Below the pieces are notes generated by a model. The model was not told the origin of the DNA. It did no database searches and saw nothing but the letters and a program-made list of their open reading frames with translations. A stretch of DNA of 64,000 nt from a virus. This document shows, in pieces, positions 6,733 through 47,891 of the stretch. Within the stretch, counting starts at the first letter, position 1. Each line of letters opens with the position of its first letter. The stretch lies in the IMG/VR virus record IMGVR_UViG_3300025889_000002, positions 16,573 through 80,572 of that record. One strand, written 5' to 3'. The translations under genes and the position numbers were made by a program.

Positions 6733-7551
6733 TTGAAATCTCCTAAGCAGCCAACTCCGCCAGATCCTAACGTGGTCGCGCAAGCCCAAGCCGGGATGAA
6801 CATCGACACGGCTCTTGCTCAGCAGAGCCTCAACATGGTTGATACGGTGAACCCGTGGGGCACGACCAGCTATGCGCAAAACGGCCAGACAAGCTTTGTC
6901 GATAGCAACGGTCAGCGCGTTACGCTGCCGCGCTATACCCAAACCACTAACTTATCGCCAGAACAACAGGCGATTTTCGACGCCTCGCAGGGCGCGCAGA
7001 CGAACCTTGCCAATATCGCGCAGGAACAGTCTGGCCGTGTGCAGGAAACTCTTTCCGACCCGTTCCAGTTTACCAATCAGGATGCAGCCGATTGGGCCTA
7101 TGATCTGGGCCAGTCACGCATTGCTCCCCAGCAGCAGCAGACCGAAGCCGCGCTTCGTGATCGGCTGATCAATTCCGGCATTCGCCCCGGCACACAGGCT
7201 TGGGATTCGGAGATGGCCCGCATGACGCAGGGCTTTAACGATCAGAACAACCAGTTAGCTTTGCAGGGCCGTGGACAGGCGTTTTCCGAGAACCTTGCCA
7301 CGCGGAATCAGTCGCTTAATGAGTTGTCCGCGCTACTCTCCGGCTCGCAGGTATCGAACCCTGCGCAGATGTCGTCTGCCACGCCTCAAGTAGGGGTCGG
7401 TGGGGTCGATTATTCCGGCATGGTCCAGAACAATTACAACAACCAGATGCAGCAGTATAACGCCCAGATGCAAAATCGCGGCGGTATGCTCGGTGGCTTA
7501 TTTGGCTTGGCAGGCTCGCTTGGCGGCGCTGCTATTCGAAGGGGTTTCTGA
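6733..7551 (+). CDS. Ejection / internal virion protein 1
   Basis: Q/N-rich, N-terminal KxPxxPxPPDP, Gly-rich hydrophobic C-terminus; TTG start inferred by comparison with unit B. Confidence 0.65.
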   Translation: MKSPKQPTPPDPNVVAQAQAGMNIDTALAQQSLNMVDTVNPWGTTSYAQNGQTSFVDSNGQRVTLPRYTQTTNLSPEQQAIFDASQGAQTNLANIAQEQSGRVQETLSDPFQFTNQDAADWAYDLGQSRIAPQQQQTEAALRDRLINSGIRPGTQAWDSEMARMTQGFNDQNNQLALQGRGQAFSENLATRNQSLNELSALLSGSQVSNPAQMSSATPQVGVGGVDYSGMVQNNYNNQMQQYNAQMQNRGGMLGGLFGLAGSLGGAAIRRGF

Positions 7552-8315
7552 TGATCCTCCCACAGTCTGCAATGGCCGCAGTCGATCCCGTAGCGCAGGC
7601 TTTGACGCCTGAAGCCGCGTTCACTTGGGCGCATGGTGGCTTGAAGATGACGCCGGAACAAGCGGCAATGCAGCGTCAACAGGGTATGGCGCGTAGCCGG
7701 GGTGATTACTCGCCTATCCAGCATTGGACACAGGGCCTTGCGCGTGTGGCGGATAACGTCATGGGTGCACTAGAGGCACGTAAAGCCGACAAGCAGATTG
7801 CAGCGGGTGCAGATGCAGACCGCGCGCTGATGGAAGCGATTGCGGGCGGTGGTGTGGATGACACCATGATCGCCCGCGCACTAATGGACCCTAATGTAGG
7901 GCAGGGCGTGAAAGAGTTTGCGGGCATGGAGTATGCCGCGCGTAGGCCCAAGCAACAGGCTCCGCTAGAGGTTGAGCGGCTAGCTATGCTGGCGAACGAT
8001 CCCAGCGCAGCGCCTTACGTGCGCGAGGCAGCAGCGGCCAAGCTTCGCAATCAAAACGATCCGCTTATCACAACGACCTTGCCGGGTGACAGGTTCTATT
8101 CGGGGCCGCAATCCGGTCTGGCAGCAGCATTGGGAGGAGGTGGTCAAGAATCTGGGGCACAGTCTACGGCGGTGCCTCCCGAGGCGGTGGCGGACCTAAT
8201 GGCCGATCCGTCACCGCAGGCTATGGCAGAGTTTGATGACGCATTCGGACAGGGTGCGGCAGAGCGCGCTCTAGGAGGTCAGGCGTCCGCGCCTGATCCC
8301 TTTCCCGCAAGTTAG
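7551..8315 (+). CDS. Ejection / internal virion protein 2
   Basis: Ala-rich helical protein; homolog at 46811-47512. Confidence 0.6.
   Translation: MILPQSAMAAVDPVAQALTPEAAFTWAHGGLKMTPEQAAMQRQQGMARSRGDYSPIQHWTQGLARVADNVMGALEARKADKQIAAGADADRALMEAIAGGGVDDTMIARALMDPNVGQGVKEFAGMEYAARRPKQQAPLEVERLAMLANDPSAAPYVREAAAAKLRNQNDPLITTTLPGDRFYSGPQSGLAAALGGGGQESGAQSTAVPPEAVADLMADPSPQAMAEFDDAFGQGAAERALGGQASAPDPFPAS
8273..8304 (+). other. Putative +1 frameshift signal (AGGAGG, hairpin, CCC TTT C)
   Basis: 32 nt identical to 47473-47504; downstream SLT ORF is in the +1 frame and open from TTC. Confidence 0.55.
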
Positions 8316-8322
8316 CGGAAAC

Positions 8323-8697
8323 ATGCTCGACAACATCACTATGCAGGCCGAAAGTAATGGCAGGCGTTATGGTGCAGGCGGTGGACTGCTGCGCTCACCT
8401 AAGGGAGCGATGGGGGAAATGCAGGTAATGCCAGCGACAGCCCGAGATCCCGGCTATGGCGTGCGCCCTTGGGACGGTTCGTCGCCGGATGATCTAGCCC
8501 GCGTTGGCCGCGATTATCGCAGGGCCATGGAGCGGGAGTTCGGCGGGGACTATGCGGCGATGTTCGGGGCTTATAACGCTGGGCCTGGCCGCGTAAGGCA
8601 ATTGCTGGATCGTTACGGCGGCGACTGGTTGCGCTATGCTCCTGCTGAAACCCGTAACTATGTAAACAAAAACATGCGCGCTCTGAGGGGCAGATAA
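8323..8697 (+). CDS. Lytic transglycosylase (SLT domain), virion-associated
   Basis: AES catalytic motif, GAMGEMQVMPATA, AYNAGPGRV, ETRNYV. Confidence 0.9.
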   Translation: MLDNITMQAESNGRRYGAGGGLLRSPKGAMGEMQVMPATARDPGYGVRPWDGSSPDDLARVGRDYRRAMEREFGGDYAAMFGAYNAGPGRVRQLLDRYGGDWLRYAPAETRNYVNKNMRALRGR

Positions 8698-11453
8698 TGG
8701 CTGAAAATCGTTTCCAGAAATATGTCCAGCCACAGCAGGGCGTAGTGTTCACCGATCCGAACGCGGCGGCGGAGCAGCAGCGCGAAGAAGATCGCCTTGC
8801 GATGGATCGCGAGCGCATTAGGTTAGCTCGCGAAGCTGCCGACAGAGCAGCGGCTAACGACGCCATCACGCGCGAAGAAAAGGCTGCTGAAAAAGCGCAA
8901 GCTGACAAGGAGGCTGCGGCACTAGAGGCCGCGCAGCGTAGCCAAGTGCGCGAAACTGCCGCTACTATGAGCACGGTTATCGAGAAAGCAAAGGAGGCGA
9001 AGCGTAGATCGAACGATTGGTTCGCTACTGGCTTTGGCGCGGAAACTGCTCTTGATTGGGGCGGCTCGGCAGCGGCAGACGTTCGAGAACTGCTTGCGCC
9101 GATTAAGGCTAATCAGGCTTTCACCACGCTTCAGAAAATGCGCGAGGCTTCGCCAACTGGTGGCGCGCTTGGTGCGGTATCCGAACGCGAACTTGCCCTG
9201 CTTCAAAGCACGATCACCGGCCTTGAGCAGTCGCAGTCTGATGCGCAATTCCAGTATGCAATGGACGAGATTGTCCAGCGTTACACGCGCGCCCTTGCCG
9301 CGCTGGAAGATGGCGACCGCTATTACCGTGAAAACGGCTCGATGGAAGGCTATGTCGGCCCTTCAGATGAATATCTGAACAGCTACAATCCTGACAATCC
9401 AGAGCCTAGAGGAGCCGCGGGTTCCGGCGCTACGCAAACCAGCCTTGAACTGCCGCAGGAATACCAGGATCGTCACGCGGCCTATCTGCGCCAGAATTGG
9501 GGCAATATCACGCCTGATGGTTATGCGCAGTTCCGTGCTGGGCTTGATAACGAGTTCCCAGAGTACGGCTCGCCTAACCTTGAGGCATACCGCGATATTG
9601 TTCCCTCCTTCAACCAGATGGCGGCAGAGGGGCAACCTCCTGAAGCCGCAGGGCAGGTTCCTGCTGCAACGCGCGAACTGTCTGGATTCGATCAGTTCCG
9701 TAATAATATTATCTCAGACCCTTTAGGTACAGGGGTAACGTCCGCGATCAATAGTGCCACAGGCGGCCTTCCTGATTTGCTCGCGGGTCGCAGGTTGCAG
9801 GCGGCGGAAGAGCTTAACCCTAAAGCAGCCTTTGTGGGCGACCTTGTTGGCAGTACGGCAGGATCTGCACTTTTTGGTAGCGGCCTGACTGTTGCGGGGG
9901 CGGGCAAGTTCGCTCCGTTTCTCGGTGATGCGCTTTACGGGACAATGTACGGCGCAACCAGCGATGAAGACCCTGTAACTGGCGCATTGCTTGGCTTAGG
10001 TTCGTCTATAGTGGGCGACCAGGCTGGTAAATACGCGGGCCGTGCAATCAACTCGATCCGTCTGCCTGATATGAACCTTTCCGAAGGGCAGCGGGTCATT
10101 ACCCAGACGGTGCGCGAAGCGGGTAATCAGGATGAAATCGCACGCGCGCTAATGAGCGCCGATGAACTTGGCGTGCCGATGACGCTGGCCGACGCATCTC
10201 CTGAATTACAGTCTCTTGCCGGTTCGGCAGTTCGCTTCTCTCCGACCACGGCGGGCGTAGCGCGGCAGACCATGGCGCGCAGGAACGAAGGCCAGTTTGA
10301 CCGGCTTGCCGAGGCAGTGGCGCGTGATCTTGGCCCGGTTGAGAATATCCCTCAGCGCAGCGCCGATCTATTGCAGCAGGCACGCACTAATGCAGGGCCG
10401 TTGTATGAGCAGGCTTATGCGGCTCCAGGTGCGGATATGGTGGACCTTACCGACCTTGCCGACCGTCCGACATTCGAAAAGGCATTGCGCGAAGCCTATA
10501 ACGAGGTGCTTGACGAAGGTCTTGACCCGTCTGCCGCTGGCATTGTCCAGACTGAAGGTGGCATGGTCATGGCCTCGCCGTCATGGCAGTCCTTGGACTA
10601 TGCGAAGCGCGGTCTGGACAACATTATTGAACGCGGTATTCGGCAAGGCGATATGCCGGAAGTACGCCGTGCACAGGCTATGAAATCAACCCTATTGCAG
10701 CGCATGGATGAAGCCAATCCCGCCTATGCGGAGGCTCGTCGCGCTTATGCAGGGCCAGCGCAGGAGCGTTCGTTTATGGAGCGTGGACGCAACGTGTTCA
10801 AAGAAGATTCCGAACAGTTGGGCGTGGATATAGCCAATCTGACGCCGGAACAAATCGGCCAAACGAGGCTCGGCGTTCAAAGCGGCACGATGCGCGAGGC
10901 GCGCAAGGTGCGGAACAACGGCAACCCGTGGGGTAGAATGGACAACCCTGAACGGGAAGCCATCTATAAAAATGTCTATGCCAGCGCCGAAGATGCCGAC
11001 ATCGCGCGGCTGCTGTCTCAGCGGGACCTGGAACTTCAGCTTGCAGGAAGCGCCAATCGTCTCATTGGCAACAGCGCCACGGCGGAACGCGAGATTCAAG
11101 ACGAGTTCTTCAAGCATCGCACCGGCATGGGCGGCGATGTCGCAATGGGTATTGTTGAAACCGGCGCGCTCGGTGGGCCGTGGCTGACCGTAGGCAAAGG
11201 TATTGCAGATCGCGTGTTCAAGGATCGTCGCGAAAAAGCTGCAGCAACCGCAAACCGCGCACTAGCCGACGATCTTGGCCCGCTGTTGCTCAATCAGTCG
11301 CCTACAAGCTCGGTTGATGCCTTGTCGCAGATGATGGCTGAGGATGAAGCCTATCGCGCTATTGCGGAAAGCCTGACGCAGCAGGGTGACATGTGGGGCC
11401 GCCGTATCGGAACAGGGGCAGCTACGGCGCTAACCGATTACCTGGCTTACTAA
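8697..11453 (+). CDS. Large ejection / internal virion protein 3
   Basis: 918 aa, SPTGGALGAVSEREL motif, hydrophobic Gly-rich middle; homolog at 47891. Confidence 0.65.
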   Translation: MAENRFQKYVQPQQGVVFTDPNAAAEQQREEDRLAMDRERIRLAREAADRAAANDAITREEKAAEKAQADKEAAALEAAQRSQVRETAATMSTVIEKAKEAKRRSNDWFATGFGAETALDWGGSAAADVRELLAPIKANQAFTTLQKMREASPTGGALGAVSERELALLQSTITGLEQSQSDAQFQYAMDEIVQRYTRALAALEDGDRYYRENGSMEGYVGPSDEYLNSYNPDNPEPRGAAGSGATQTSLELPQEYQDRHAAYLRQNWGNITPDGYAQFRAGLDNEFPEYGSPNLEAYRDIVPSFNQMAAEGQPPEAAGQVPAATRELSGFDQFRNNIISDPLGTGVTSAINSATGGLPDLLAGRRLQAAEELNPKAAFVGDLVGSTAGSALFGSGLTVAGAGKFAPFLGDALYGTMYGATSDEDPVTGALLGLGSSIVGDQAGKYAGRAINSIRLPDMNLSEGQRVITQTVREAGNQDEIARALMSADELGVPMTLADASPELQSLAGSAVRFSPTTAGVARQTMARRNEGQFDRLAEAVARDLGPVENIPQRSADLLQQARTNAGPLYEQAYAAPGADMVDLTDLADRPTFEKALREAYNEVLDEGLDPSAAGIVQTEGGMVMASPSWQSLDYAKRGLDNIIERGIRQGDMPEVRRAQAMKSTLLQRMDEANPAYAEARRAYAGPAQERSFMERGRNVFKEDSEQLGVDIANLTPEQIGQTRLGVQSGTMREARKVRNNGNPWGRMDNPEREAIYKNVYASAEDADIARLLSQRDLELQLAGSANRLIGNSATAEREIQDEFFKHRTGMGGDVAMGIVETGALGGPWLTVGKGIADRVFKDRREKAAATANRALADDLGPLLLNQSPTSSVDALSQMMAEDEAYRAIAESLTQQGDMWGRRIGTGAATALTDYLAY

Positions 11454-14941: not shown

Positions 14942-15282
14942 AATGGACCGAATTTCTCCGCGGACACAACGGCGGACTGGAGATCAATCGGCTTGTTGGC
15001 TTCATCGGCGGTGTTGCCTACATCGCCAGCGCCATCACGTTCCAATGGTGGAACTGGGCAACCTTCGACGTCACGGCCTTCTGCCTAGCCTTCTCTGGCG
15101 GCTTGTCGGTCATCGTGGGTGGCACGGCTGGCGCGGTGGCCCTGAAGGATCGGCAGGTAGCTTCTGCCGCTGTCATCGCCGAAACAGGCAGCAAACCTGC
15201 CAAGCCCCCTGCACCCGCTCCGAAGCCGCAAGAGGGGCTGGATGATGGGGCAGAAGACAAGCGGCCTCCGTATGCTCGGTGA
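14938..15282 (+). CDS. Putative holin
   Basis: Two hydrophobic segments and a charged C-terminus, directly upstream of the endolysin. Confidence 0.5.
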   Translation: MKWTEFLRGHNGGLEINRLVGFIGGVAYIASAITFQWWNWATFDVTAFCLAFSGGLSVIVGGTAGAVALKDRQVASAAVIAETGSKPAKPPAPAPKPQEGLDDGAEDKRPPYAR

Positions 15283-16057
15283 ACCGCAATGGGCCTTAAT
15301 CTTTGGCGCGGCCCGCAAGCGCGGAGCAACGTGGGATGACCTCGCAGACGTAAACGCCTTCAAGCGCGAGATCGAGGTGGCCTTGGATGACGGCACCATC
15401 ATCGTCACGGGGAACAAGCCCCCCGAAGTCCTGCCATGGGCAGACATGCTTGCCAGCATCACGAACACGAACGCCCCAGCCCTCACGCAAGACGATTACG
15501 AGCGCGCCGCCGTCGAGTTGGGCAATGGTGTCACCCCCAAGCACATGCGTGCCAGCAAGACGGTTGAGGCGCCGCGTGGGGCATTCGATGACAATGGCCG
15601 GCCTTCGATCCTCTACGAGCGCCACGTATTCGCCCGCAACACCACGCCCAAGGGGCGGTTCAATTCATCCTACCCCGACCTGTCGGCCATCCGTGGCTAT
15701 GGTGCAGGCGGCTATGGGCCGTTCTCGTCGCAATACACCAAATTGCAGCGCGCCTACGCGCTAGATCCGGAATCGGCTTTTGAGGCGTGTTCATGGGGCG
15801 CGTTTCAGGTGCTTGGTGAGAATGCGGTGCAACTAGGTTATGCGTCTGCCCGCGATATGGCCTGCGAACTGGCCAAGAGCGAAGCGGCGCACCTCGATAG
15901 CTATGTGCGATTCATCAAGGTCAATGGACTGGCAGACGAACTAGGCAGATGCCGCGCTGGCGATCCTGAAAGCTGCATACCCTTTGTCGAGCGATACAAC
16001 GGCAGCGGGTTTCGCAAATTCAGTTACCATGTCAAATTCGCGGAGGCTCTGCTATGA
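15242..16057 (+). CDS. Endolysin, N-acetylmuramidase (DUF3380-type)
   Basis: GRPSILYERHVF, SWGAFQVLGEN, RYNG motifs; start uncertain (15242/15245/15272). Confidence 0.85.
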   Translation: MMGQKTSGLRMLGEPQWALIFGAARKRGATWDDLADVNAFKREIEVALDDGTIIVTGNKPPEVLPWADMLASITNTNAPALTQDDYERAAVELGNGVTPKHMRASKTVEAPRGAFDDNGRPSILYERHVFARNTTPKGRFNSSYPDLSAIRGYGAGGYGPFSSQYTKLQRAYALDPESAFEACSWGAFQVLGENAVQLGYASARDMACELAKSEAAHLDSYVRFIKVNGLADELGRCRAGDPESCIPFVERYNGSGFRKFSYHVKFAEALL

Positions 16058-16397: not shown

Positions 16398-16765
16398 TTA
16401 CCACATTCTTTGCCTCGACCATCAATAAGGTATTCGCAGGTGTCGTTCTCGCGCTTCTGGTGGCCCTTGGGATAGCCATGTGGTCGAACGCCCGCAAGGA
16501 CGCCACAATTGAAACCCTGCGCAACGCAGTGGCCGTCTCGGAGGCACAGCATAGCGTAACCGCTGCATCACTGGACTCACTGACCCGCCGCATGAAGGAG
16601 CTTGTCGAACAAGGGCAGTTGCGGGAAAGCCTGCTAGCCGAAGCCATGAAGGAAGCGGAAGAAGAAACGTCCGAATTGCAGGACGAAGCCGACGCCCTAC
16701 GCAAGGAAGGTGTTACCGACCAGTGTGTGACGCCCGCTGGGGTGCTTCGAAGCCGTGGCTTGTGA
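16394..16765 (+). CDS. Inner-membrane spanin (Rz-like)
   Basis: N-terminal TM, coiled coil, C-terminal Cys. Confidence 0.65.
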   Translation: MITTFFASTINKVFAGVVLALLVALGIAMWSNARKDATIETLRNAVAVSEAQHSVTAASLDSLTRRMKELVEQGQLRESLLAEAMKEAEEETSELQDEADALRKEGVTDQCVTPAGVLRSRGL

Positions 16766-45992: not shown

Positions 45993-46811
45993 GTGAAGAC
46001 ACCTAAAGCGCCCCCTCCCCCGGATCCAGTAGCGACAGCGCAGGCCCAAGCGGGCCTCAATCTGTCAACTGCCATCACGCAGCAGAACCTCAACATGACC
46101 GATCAGGTCAATCCTTGGGGAACGACAAGCTACACGCAGAACGGCAACACGCGATTCCAGGATAGCTTCGGGAATTGGGTGGAGGTTCCACGCTACACCC
46201 AGACAACCGAGTTTTCTCCCGAACAGCAGGCGATCTTCGACAAGTCGCAGGCTGCACAGACGAACCTTGCCGGTATCGCACAGGAACAGTCTGGCCGCGT
46301 GTCGGAAGCCTTGGCTGATCCGTTCTCTTTCAACAATCAGGACGCAGCAGATTGGGCCTATGACCTTAGCCAGTCTCGCATTGCCCCGCAACAGGCGCAG
46401 CAGGAAGCGGCTCTCCGCGACAGGCTGATCAATCAGGGTATCCGCCCGGGCACAACTGCTTGGGATGCGGAGATGGGCCGTCAGACGCAGGGCTTCAACG
46501 ACCAGAACAACCAGCTTGCCCTTACGGGTCGCAATCAGGCATTTTCGGAAGCCCTCGCAACGCGCAATCAGCCGCTTAATGAGTTGTCCGCGCTGCTCTC
46601 CGGGTCGCAAGTGTCGAACCCCGCCCAGATGTCTGGCGCCACTCCACAGGTCGGCGTCGGCGGTGTGGACTATTCCGGTATGGTCCAGAACAACTACAAC
46701 AACCAGATGCAGCAGTATAATGCGCAGATGCAGAACCGCGGCGGTATGCTGGGAGGACTGTTCGGGCTTGCAGGTTCCTTGGGTGGGGCCGCTATTCGAG
46801 GAGGTTTCTGA
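45993..46811 (+). CDS. Ejection protein 1
   Basis: Homolog of 6733-7551. Confidence 0.65.
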   Translation: MKTPKAPPPPDPVATAQAQAGLNLSTAITQQNLNMTDQVNPWGTTSYTQNGNTRFQDSFGNWVEVPRYTQTTEFSPEQQAIFDKSQAAQTNLAGIAQEQSGRVSEALADPFSFNNQDAADWAYDLSQSRIAPQQAQQEAALRDRLINQGIRPGTTAWDAEMGRQTQGFNDQNNQLALTGRNQAFSEALATRNQPLNELSALLSGSQVSNPAQMSGATPQVGVGGVDYSGMVQNNYNNQMQQYNAQMQNRGGMLGGLFGLAGSLGGAAIRGGF

Positions 46812-47512
46812 TGATCCTCCCCCAAGCAGCAATGGCCGCAGTCGATCCGGTTGCACAGGCTCTTGCGCCGCCTGAAGCCTTCGTCTGGGGGCACGGCGGG
46901 CTCAAGATGACCCCGCAACAGGCCATGATGCAGCGGGAGCGCGGTATCGCCCGATCGCAAGGTGACTTTTCGCCTATCCAGAATTGGACGCAGGGCTTGG
47001 GCCGTGTGGCCGAGAATGTGCTTGGCGCCCTTGAGGCACGCAAGGCGGATAAGGCTCTTGCTGCAGGTGCGGAAGCCGATCGAGGGCTTGCAGAGGCTAT
47101 CGCTGCTGGAGGTGTGGATGATGCCACCATTGCCCGGGCGCTGATGGATCCGAATGTGGGTCAGGGCGTGCGCGAATTCGCGGGCATGGAATATGCGGCA
47201 CGTAGGCCAAAGGCGGCGGCTCCTACCAACATCGAAAAGCTTATGATCTCGCGCGGCATTCAGCCCGGTTCGCCGGAATGGAATCGCACGCTTGACGCGG
47301 CCCTGCAGAACGAAACCGATCCGTTCGTGACGTTCCAGGGTCCGACCTATGGTTATACCGGCAGGCAATCTGGTCTTGCCGCTGCAATGCAGGGAGGAGG
47401 TGGTCCGGTATCTGGAGCGCAGCCGGGTGGTGAGCCCCCGGCAGTGCTTCCCCCTGACTTTGACTTCGGGGAAGGAGGTCAGGCGTCCGCGCCTGATCCC
47501 TTTCGGCGCTAG
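46811..47512 (+). CDS. Ejection protein 2
   Basis: Homolog of 7551-8315. Confidence 0.6.
   Translation: MILPQAAMAAVDPVAQALAPPEAFVWGHGGLKMTPQQAMMQRERGIARSQGDFSPIQNWTQGLGRVAENVLGALEARKADKALAAGAEADRGLAEAIAAGGVDDATIARALMDPNVGQGVREFAGMEYAARRPKAAAPTNIEKLMISRGIQPGSPEWNRTLDAALQNETDPFVTFQGPTYGYTGRQSGLAAAMQGGGGPVSGAQPGGEPPAVLPPDFDFGEGGQASAPDPFRR
47473..47504 (+). other. Putative +1 frameshift signal
   Basis: Identical to 8273-8304. Confidence 0.55.
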
Positions 47513-47519
47513 CGGCTCA

Positions 47520-47891
47520 ATGCTTGATAACATCACCGCTCAGACCGAGAGCAACAACCGCAACTATGCCAACGGCCGGCCTGTGACCTCGCCTGCGGGG
47601 GCTATGTTCGCCATGCAGGTTATGCCTGCGACTGCGCGTGACCCCGGGTTTGGGTTGCGCCCCGCCAATCCGAGTGATGCAAACGACATGAACCGCCTTG
47701 GCCGTGAATATCGCGCCAAGATGGAGCAGCGCTACGGCGGCGATCTTAGCAAGATGTGGGGAGCCTATAACGCAGGGCCGGGGCGTGTAGACGATCTCAT
47801 TCGCCAATACGGCAATGATTGGCTAAGGTATGCCCCCGCTGAAACTCGCAATTATGTGTCCAAAAACATTCGCGCTCTAAGGGGCAAGTAA
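47520..47891 (+). CDS. Lytic transglycosylase (SLT domain)
   Basis: TES, MQVMPATA, AYNAGPGRV, ETRNYV. Confidence 0.9.
   Translation: MLDNITAQTESNNRNYANGRPVTSPAGAMFAMQVMPATARDPGFGLRPANPSDANDMNRLGREYRAKMEQRYGGDLSKMWGAYNAGPGRVDDLIRQYGNDWLRYAPAETRNYVSKNIRALRGK

Follow-up and report, generated by a model that had tools for sequence, protein, structure and literature searches.

The 64,000-nt stretch analysed here (the window) is part of the 80,572-bp (~80.5 kb) IMG/VR virus record IMGVR_UViG_3300025889_000002, positions 16,573 to 80,572, and contains two related phage genomes, units 1 and 2. In each unit the 3′ end of a gene for a putative internal virion protein carries a short element, composed of a GGAGGU sequence, an RNA hairpin and an in-frame UUU_C, that is very probably a programmed +1 ribosomal frameshift cassette of podophage-like viruses. 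Judged from its conservation, the cassette would fuse a fraction of the virion protein to a small peptidoglycan hydrolase, which in the window is a lytic transglycosylase (SLT) domain encoded in the +1 frame. The composite 5′ stimulator is most likely new, and the cassette is shared by a group of mostly uncultured podophage-like viruses and prophages. No earlier description of it was found in the literature searched, which consisted of open-access papers, and an account in a subscription journal is possible.

The cassette in the window and its relatives

The 32-mer AGGAGGTCAGGCGTCCGCGCCTGATCCCTTTC is identical at 8273–8304 (unit 1) and 47473–47504 (unit 2). The units are 77% identical over the 855 aligned columns; the flank upstream of the 32-mer is rich in indels and largely unalignable, and the spacer downstream has diverged. 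All features described here are on the + strand. The unit 1 upstream gene in the list of open reading frames (ORFs) occupies 7551–8315 and encodes 254 amino acids in the 0 frame, ending ...GGQASAPDPF-PAS-stop, while its unit 2 counterpart (46811–47512) encodes a 233-amino-acid product that is 61% identical. The sequence GGAGGU at 8274–8279 resembles an internal Shine–Dalgarno (SD) sequence and encodes Gly-Gly by the minority codons GGA and GGU. It is followed by a hairpin of 9 bp with a UCCG loop (8277–8298, core 8279–8285 with 8290–8296), the 3′ end of which lies 2 nt before UUU. This hairpin has a folding energy of −14.1 kcal/mol (z = −5.1), where the count of 9 bp includes the G-U and G-C closing pairs. 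The predicted shift site UUU_C is at 8301–8304. The 0 frame reads CCC TTT CCC GCA AGT TAG, with the TAG at 8313–8315, three sense codons past UUU. In unit 2 the cassette spans 47474–47504 (GGAGGU 47474–47479, hairpin 47477–47498, UUU_C 47501–47504), and the 0 frame reads CCC TTT CGG CGC TAG, with the stop at 47510–47512.

In both units the +1 frame meets no stop between TTC and the SLT domain (F-PQVSGN-M... and F-GASGS-M...). The unit 1 +1-frame ORF (8305–8697) comprises the linker PQVSGN and the SLT domain, which has its own ATG at 8323; the SLT ORF of the structural module is 124 amino acids long, and its stop overlaps the ATG of the next gene at 8697. The unit 2 ORF (47505–47891) comprises the linker GASGS and an SLT domain with its own ATG at 47520. 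Both ATGs are in the +1 frame of the upstream gene, and TTTC is separated from them by 18 nt in unit 1 and 15 nt in unit 2. A TAG (8272–8274) shortly before the element closes the +1 frame of unit 1, so ATG 8323 is its first canonical start. The two SLT domains match Pfam PF01464 with 37.2 bits (E 2.5e-9, unit 1) and 41.4 bits (E 1.2e-10, unit 2) against a gathering cut-off of 21.3; they are 65% identical, and in unit 1 the catalytic E-S motif is formed by residues 10–11 after the ATG.

The initial annotation of this DNA had noted the shared 32-mer, the in-frame CCC TTT C, the 0-frame stops, the +1-frame SLT and the 3-nt difference between the spacers, and all of these hold. Its statement that the codons upstream of the 32-mer are unrelated is borne out by the indels there. 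The hairpin that it described is real, but the 7 bp allotted to it are too few, as it folds with 9 bp at 8277–8298. Likewise, the 0 frame does stop early, but the count of three to four codons needed correction: three and two sense codons follow TTT, so that the stop is the fourth and the third codon, respectively.

No site resembling an intrinsic terminator was found in 7400–9000, and only three U follow the hairpin. A second SD-like run, GGGAGGAGGTGGTC, is also identical in the two units (8132–8145 and 47392–47405). It encodes a Gly run of the upstream protein and precedes the shift site by ~155 nt in unit 1 and by ~95 nt in unit 2. GGAGGT and GGAGGA are common spellings of Gly-Gly in these genes.

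Homologs of the upstream protein were gathered from viral contigs, metagenome contigs and bacterial genomes, and their junctions were extracted by script. The element was present in 25 distinct junction versions, made up of the window's two units and 23 further relatives, in which identity to the window's upstream protein falls to ~30%. The relatives come mostly from marine, soil and plant-associated metagenomes, and the bacterial carriers are a Qipengyuania genome (L088) and a Janthinobacterium metagenome-assembled genome (L098). L088 is a prophage of Qipengyuania sp. MTN3-11, located at about 21–27 kb of NZ_BTGM01000002.1. This result answers the suggestion of the initial annotation to search relatives for a GGAGG-hairpin-TTTC arrangement before a +1-frame hydrolase. 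All 25 elements begin with GGAGG, to which a U is added in nearly every case; a 7–9 bp hairpin comes directly after it, then 2–5 unpaired nt and an in-frame UUU_Y, and in all of them the 0 frame stops after 0–4 further codons. The four G columns of GGAGG are invariant. The base after UUU is C in 23 elements and U in two, L020 (3170–3176) and L024 (3284–3290), which read UUU_UGA and place the stop codon itself in the A site. A CCC before UUU is confined to the window's subgroup, the other elements having GGC, AAC, ACC or GGG. The 25 elements are related by descent and raw counts overstate their independence; the exchange of cargo and the inverted layouts reported below are more independent evidence than the counts.

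Covariation was scored on nine pairs of the MAFFT alignment A4, with 500 shuffles. The stems differ in sequence among elements (for example UCAGGCG/CGCCUGA, CCGACGC/GCGUCGG, CCGGCUG/CAGCCGG and GCGGGGC/GCCCCGC), and the hairpin positions were paired in 88.8% of cells, versus 69.0 ± 2.0 in the shuffles. Double-sided changes numbered 38, versus 10.8 ± 3.2, and no shuffle of the 500 reached 38. When the registers were slid by 1–3 columns, just 35–49% of cells were paired. The peptide encoded between GG and F is highly variable (QASAPDP, PTPTASGG, PAAPQPGG, AGSGSRT and others). The Phe at the site is spelled TTT in 25 of 25 elements, a codon that accounts for 32% of Phe elsewhere in these genes, and the base after it is a pyrimidine in 25 of 25, compared with ~31% elsewhere. 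The element spells Gly-Gly GGA GGU, and among Gly codons outside it GGC is commonest, with GGA at 12% and GGT at 22%. These comparisons argue that the hairpin is selected as RNA, and the codon choice likewise points to selection at the nucleotide level.

The covariance model of the element, R1, searched against the whole window with filters off, found 8266–8306 (45.4 bits) and 47466–47506 (48.8 bits) only, the next best match scoring 10.8 bits. The two bacterial genomes in which a copy resides as a prophage gave one match each, and under stricter filters R1 matched one of 151 sampled genomes of that bacterial order.

Reading frames and start codons of the hydrolases

The +1 frame after the element leads into a peptidoglycan-hydrolase ORF in all 25 versions, 83–131 amino acids long in the 23 complete cases. 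The hydrolases are of several kinds. Two are SLT types, one of them that of the window and the other marked by ..QESGG.., two more resemble Peptidase_M15_3 (PF08291), and one domain matches a PHROG endolysin family. This distribution indicates that the cargo has been exchanged several times and the signal and its +1 relation kept. The picture differed at 77 distinct junctions of homologous genes without the signal. The next gene was callable at 74 of them, and its frame was +2 in 60 cases, 0 in nine and +1 in five. The +2 neighbours represent the usual TAATG or ATGA overlaps. Among cultured phages no usable relative with the cassette was found by tblastn of the upstream protein, the M15 cargo and the type-B SLT cargo against 50,697 phage records.

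In five complete hydrolase ORFs (L012, L007, L018, L115 and L123) no ATG, GTG or TTG precedes the catalytic motif. Asp or Arg takes the place of the window's Met in L012 and L007, where the first start is a Met three residues before the catalytic Glu; L012 resembles unit 1 of the window also in having its +1 frame closed just upstream of the element. In L018, L115 and L123 the first start is 34–67 codons into the ORF, past the catalytic motifs, and in L108, on a truncated contig, there is no start within the 28 codons available. Residues L7 and T11, which are encoded before those first starts, are invariant across 11 SLT sequences, as is E-S. An AlphaFold2 model of the L012 +1 ORF has a predicted helix, 4–16, that ends at the catalytic Glu. 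Initiation at the internal Met would cut this helix, although the confidence of the model is too low to lean on, with a mean predicted local distance difference test score of 68 and ~50 at the N-terminus. The L012 and L007 arrangements recur without mismatch over 189–236 nt as L107 and L109, on one TARA and one ENA contig from different collections, which makes assembly error unlikely. As read from their sequences, hydrolase ORFs of this start-less kind need ribosomes that arrive from the upstream frame.

The reverse arrangement was also found. When R1 was run over 471 kb of related loci without the +1 arrangement, only three non-training matches were obtained, representing two distinct relatives, L033 (3138–3181, 35.3 bits) and L027 (=L119; 3333–3376, 30.2 bits). 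Both retain the SD-like element, the hairpin and UUU_Y, and in both the upstream-protein homolog runs in frame into an M15 domain, so the fused architecture exists as a plain protein. The L033 junction ..GGPTQPASETFSAGF-RGLPGETVTSTFRTPAHN.. aligns with the conceptual shifted product of L018, ..GGPTPTASGGF-RGVEGETITSTYRTPAHN... After the element the +1 frame closes in two codons in L027 and in 12 codons in L033, and a +1 slip in these relatives would yield the short form. The two layouts would then lead to one and the same pair of products, a coincidence not easily accounted for if the signal had no function. M15 was the only cargo among the in-frame fusions found (L027, L033, P0027 and P0028).

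Comparison with relatives supports the +1 frameshift first proposed in the initial annotation, with GGAGGU, hairpin and UUU_Y each conserved at the nucleotide level, and modifies two of its particulars. The shift at UUU_C stands, but CCC_UUU_C is not the general site: UUU_Y is general and CCC belongs to the window's subgroup. A hydrolase in the +1 frame stands too, but the cargo can be any small peptidoglycan hydrolase and not the SLT specifically. The frame relation noted from the two units proved constant, the hydrolase being in +1 in 25 of 25 junctions with the element versus five of 74 scorable junctions without it. A free enzyme begun at its own ATG, the other outcome that had been envisaged, cannot be the sole product in all lineages, given the five ORFs without a canonical start before the catalytic motif.

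Proposed mechanism and alternatives

The cassette has the attributes of a recoding site, namely a shift-prone UUU_Y, a +1 ORF that depends on upstream translation and a cis stimulator at a fixed distance. Sites of the form UUU_Ynn are especially prone to +1 shifting in bacteria (PMC5009743). Under the proposed mechanism, most ribosomes would read UUU and two or three codons more before stopping, giving the short protein of 254 or 233 amino acids. A fraction would slip while UUU occupies the P site, where the only tRNA-Phe (anticodon GAA) would re-pair from UUU to the overlapping UUC. Translation by these ribosomes would proceed in the +1 frame, across a short linker rich in Ser and Gly and on through the SLT domain, to yield a fusion of 381 amino acids in unit 1 and 359 in unit 2. 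For unit 1 the two forms would be about 27 and 41 kDa.

The slip would be stimulated from the 5′ side, where the hairpin ends 2–5 nt before UUU and adjoins the E-site codon; when UUU is in the P site, the 3′ arm of the hairpin begins near −3 or −4. GGAGGU can pair along its full length with the tail of 16S rRNA and is separated from UUU by 22–25 nt linearly, or by a few nt once the hairpin has formed. Placed at the hairpin's 5′ foot, it probably pairs with this tail and anchors the mRNA to the platform. Re-formation of the hairpin behind the ribosome would shorten the tether and strain the mRNA forward, favouring forward slippage. Upstream hairpins juxtaposed to the E site do stimulate +1 shifting in yeast and on 70S ribosomes in vitro, and have been described as mimicking the internal SD duplex in function (PMC6321510, PMC3639245). 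The purpose would be to tether a small hydrolase without a packaging determinant of its own to a packaged, ejected protein, at a set ratio of short to long product. An enzyme of 9–14 kDa alone has no evident way into the capsid, so fusion to a packaged protein would provide one.

On balance we favour a general form of this proposal, a modular ‘frameshift tether’, in which the SD-anchored refolding hairpin at the E-site codon acts as a spring-like +1 stimulator on UUU_Y and, in a family of uncultured podophages and prophages, sets the ratio of plain to enzyme-bearing internal virion protein, with exchangeable cargo and invertible polarity. It would be the first natural example of an upstream hairpin in this role, for which engineered constructs have been the only demonstration so far. 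In bacteria and phages, programmed +1 frameshifts are uncommon, and only a small number of them have a stimulator that has been defined. The present cassette is ~45 nt long, conserved and clearly covarying, which makes it directly testable. If the proposal is true, the cassette would offer a natural system for +1 stimulation by an upstream hairpin combined with an internal SD, and would account for the entry of a 9–14 kDa hydrolase without a packaging signal into the virion. It would also correct gene calls, both of start-less ‘orphan’ hydrolase ORFs and of SLT genes truncated by calling an internal Met, and R1 provides a searchable signature for similar recoding events in metagenomic phage genomes.

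Several points weigh against frameshifting. Support for it is wholly comparative, and the kinship of the 25 elements inflates the independence of simple counts; it is from such comparison that we infer the slip, its efficiency, the roles of SD and hairpin, and incorporation into virions. The 0-frame A-site codons after UUU (CCC, CGG, CGC and CCG) are not obviously slow in G+C-rich hosts, and the 22–25 nt between GGAGG and UUU are far past the known spacing of +1-stimulating SD sequences unless the hairpin is folded. None of 28 sequence-detectable homologs of the upstream protein (139–445 amino acids) is an in-frame SLT fusion. Finally, the window and most relatives do have an ATG or GTG 1–10 codons after UUU, and where a start is present the hydrolase may be made free by termination-reinitiation, even as the main route there. 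In the window the ATG is 7 nt past the 0-frame stop, and some free SLT may arise by reinitiation; the fusion and free routes are not mutually exclusive.

Taken to its limit, this last point would leave two ordinary genes, with the hydrolase made only as a free protein by termination-reinitiation and the GGAGG-hairpin serving coupling or transcript stability. The ATG 7 nt after the TAG, the starts within 10 codons of UUU in most relatives, the tight gene coupling that is the norm in these genomes and the lack of an in-frame SLT fusion among the 28 homologs would all suit this explanation. We nevertheless consider it unlikely, because five complete hydrolase ORFs have no canonical start before the catalytic motif, and because the element keeps a fixed distance to UUU and not to the start codon, which varies from 1 to 10 codons. 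Furthermore, the hydrolase is in +1 in 25 of 25 cases whereas coupled neighbours are overwhelmingly in +2, the in-frame fused relatives retain the element though nothing needs reinitiating, and GGAGG is 44–50 nt from the window's ATGs. Internal initiation in the +1 frame could alternatively be served by a split ribosome-binding site, in which the hairpin brings GGAGG near a nearby or non-canonical start of the hydrolase. Split sites have been proposed for some phage T4 genes, such as 25 and 38, and the succession of SD, hairpin and short spacer resembles them. A GTG directly after UUC in L026 and another two codons later in L020 would fit as well. However, most elements have no +1-frame ATG, GTG or TTG near the hairpin, where the codons are ACU, UUC, CCU and the like, and what is invariant is the in-frame UUU_Y of the upstream frame, which would be superfluous for initiation, together with a 0-frame stop that always falls within 0–4 codons. 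This renders a split site quite improbable.

Least credible, and given almost no weight by us, is the absence of any RNA function, with the 32-mer being a C-terminal peptide motif (GG...PDPF) or a recombination joint of mosaic genomes and the hairpin incidental. The motif does encode a recognisable Gly-Gly...Phe tail, but the encoded peptide varies while pairing is kept by compensatory changes, the Gly-Gly and Phe codons are fixed against local usage, and every element is accompanied by a +1 hydrolase ORF.

Genome context and known systems

The two genomes in the window are ~39.2 kb each, arranged head to tail, and 70–92% identical where alignable. The 80,572-bp record carries a direct-terminal-repeat flag. 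In the metagenome contig JGI24660J20065_1000005 (79,250 bp; L104/L105) the locus is also present in two copies, identical over the 281 nt compared. Such paired copies may reflect tandem prophages, a concatemer or an artefact of co-assembly. The structural module is podophage-like by PHROG matches, which place a virion structural protein and the major head protein at 0.3–2.5 kb and terminase and portal at 34.6–38.5 kb. The genes follow the order head, tail, a 638-amino-acid protein, a small acetyltransferase, a 292-amino-acid structural protein, the 254-amino-acid gene, SLT, a 918-amino-acid protein and fibres, and the order is identical in Rhizobium phage RHph_I3_18. By position and synteny alone, the 254-amino-acid gene encodes a putative internal virion (ejection-type) protein. 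The 918-amino-acid protein matches a PHROG family annotated ‘released from the phage upon host infection’. Its ATG is overlapped by the stop of the SLT ORF (TAATG, 8695–8699), a form of coupling that is usual in these genomes. That SLT might be linked to the 918-amino-acid gene by another frameshift was considered and rejected, since the CAAAAAC run close to the end of SLT is not a canonical −1 heptamer and the −1 frame, read by eye, closes at once.

The N-terminal ~100 amino acids of the upstream protein (window 7551–7850; ..FxWGxGG..TP.Q....DYSPIQHWTQGLARV..) also form the N-terminus of proteins of 400–850 amino acids. These are found on many other podophage-like contigs (loci L025–L099) and include a ‘putative tail protein’ of RHph_I3_18 (659 amino acids). 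This sequence may be a shared anchoring module to which variable C-terminal parts are joined. Proteins of 720–758 amino acids with a related SLT in frame, Bbp11 of Bordetella phage BPP-1 and those of Caulobacter Rauchvirus, were set aside as evidence for the fusion, their N-terminal parts having no BLAST similarity to the upstream protein.

The phage thus encodes two enzymes that act on the cell wall, the SLT and, in the lysis region near the putative lysis genes, an endolysin (15242–16057, phrog_1224/2860). With a separate endolysin in the lysis cassette, the SLT of the structural module is not needed as a lysis enzyme. By analogy with T7 gp16, the most fitting role for this module's hydrolase is that of an enzyme carried in the virion to get through the cell wall. 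T7 gp16 and its relatives likewise have a virion-borne lytic transglycosylase delivered with internal or ejection proteins (PMC8954989), virion delivery being presumed for the present phages. However, the gp16 SLT is in frame at the N-terminus, whereas in the present phages a smaller protein is followed by the SLT as a +1 ORF of its own. Nor is it an in-frame part of the following large protein, as the SLT ORF ends at 8697 with its stop overlapping the ATG of the 918-amino-acid gene, in a different frame. Peptidoglycan hydrolase domains are known to move between ejection proteins, in a review that makes no mention of frameshifting (PMC8954989).

Listeria phages PSA, A118 and A500 and other phage structural genes (PMC5009743) similarly use a +1 shift near the end of an ORF to make a short and a C-terminally extended product. 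Their shift is on CCC (CCC_UGA, or CCC with a 3′ pseudoknot), the genes are for capsid or tail proteins and the extensions are Ig-like or other decorations. The present cassette is not a CCC site of this type, but would combine UUU_Y with a 5′ stimulator and add an enzyme as the extension. The tetranucleotide UUU_C, with the proposed re-pairing of tRNA-Phe, is shared with influenza A PA-X and Yersinia YopN-TyeA (PMC3498833, PMC5009743). The PA-X site is UCC_UUU_CGU (PMC3498833), and unit 2 reads CCC_UUU_CGG. Those systems belong to other hosts and genes, and no conserved 5′ SD or hairpin is described there. Engineered refolding hairpins (PMC3639245, PMC6321510) likewise place the end of a stable hairpin a few nt 5′ of the site of shifting, but are synthetic and were placed on CUUUGA or yeast sites, whereas the cassette is natural, conserved and combined with an SD-like sequence.

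The E. coli prfB (release factor 2, RF2) frameshift resembles the proposed one in its +1 slip of the P-site tRNA on a site of the NUU_U/C type, its 5′ duplex abutting the E-site codon and its SD-like sequence (GGAGG here, AGGGGG in prfB). In L020 and L024 only, the likeness extends to an A site that holds a stop codon (UUU_UGA). The prfB SD is 3 nt from the shift codon and there is no hairpin, whereas here the distance is 22–25 nt with a covarying hairpin between. The window's sites, with sense codons after UUU and the SD 22 nt upstream, are not of the RF2 type. Across the cassettes the A-site codon is mostly a sense codon (CCC and CGG in the window), and the predicted output is a structural fusion rather than autoregulation.

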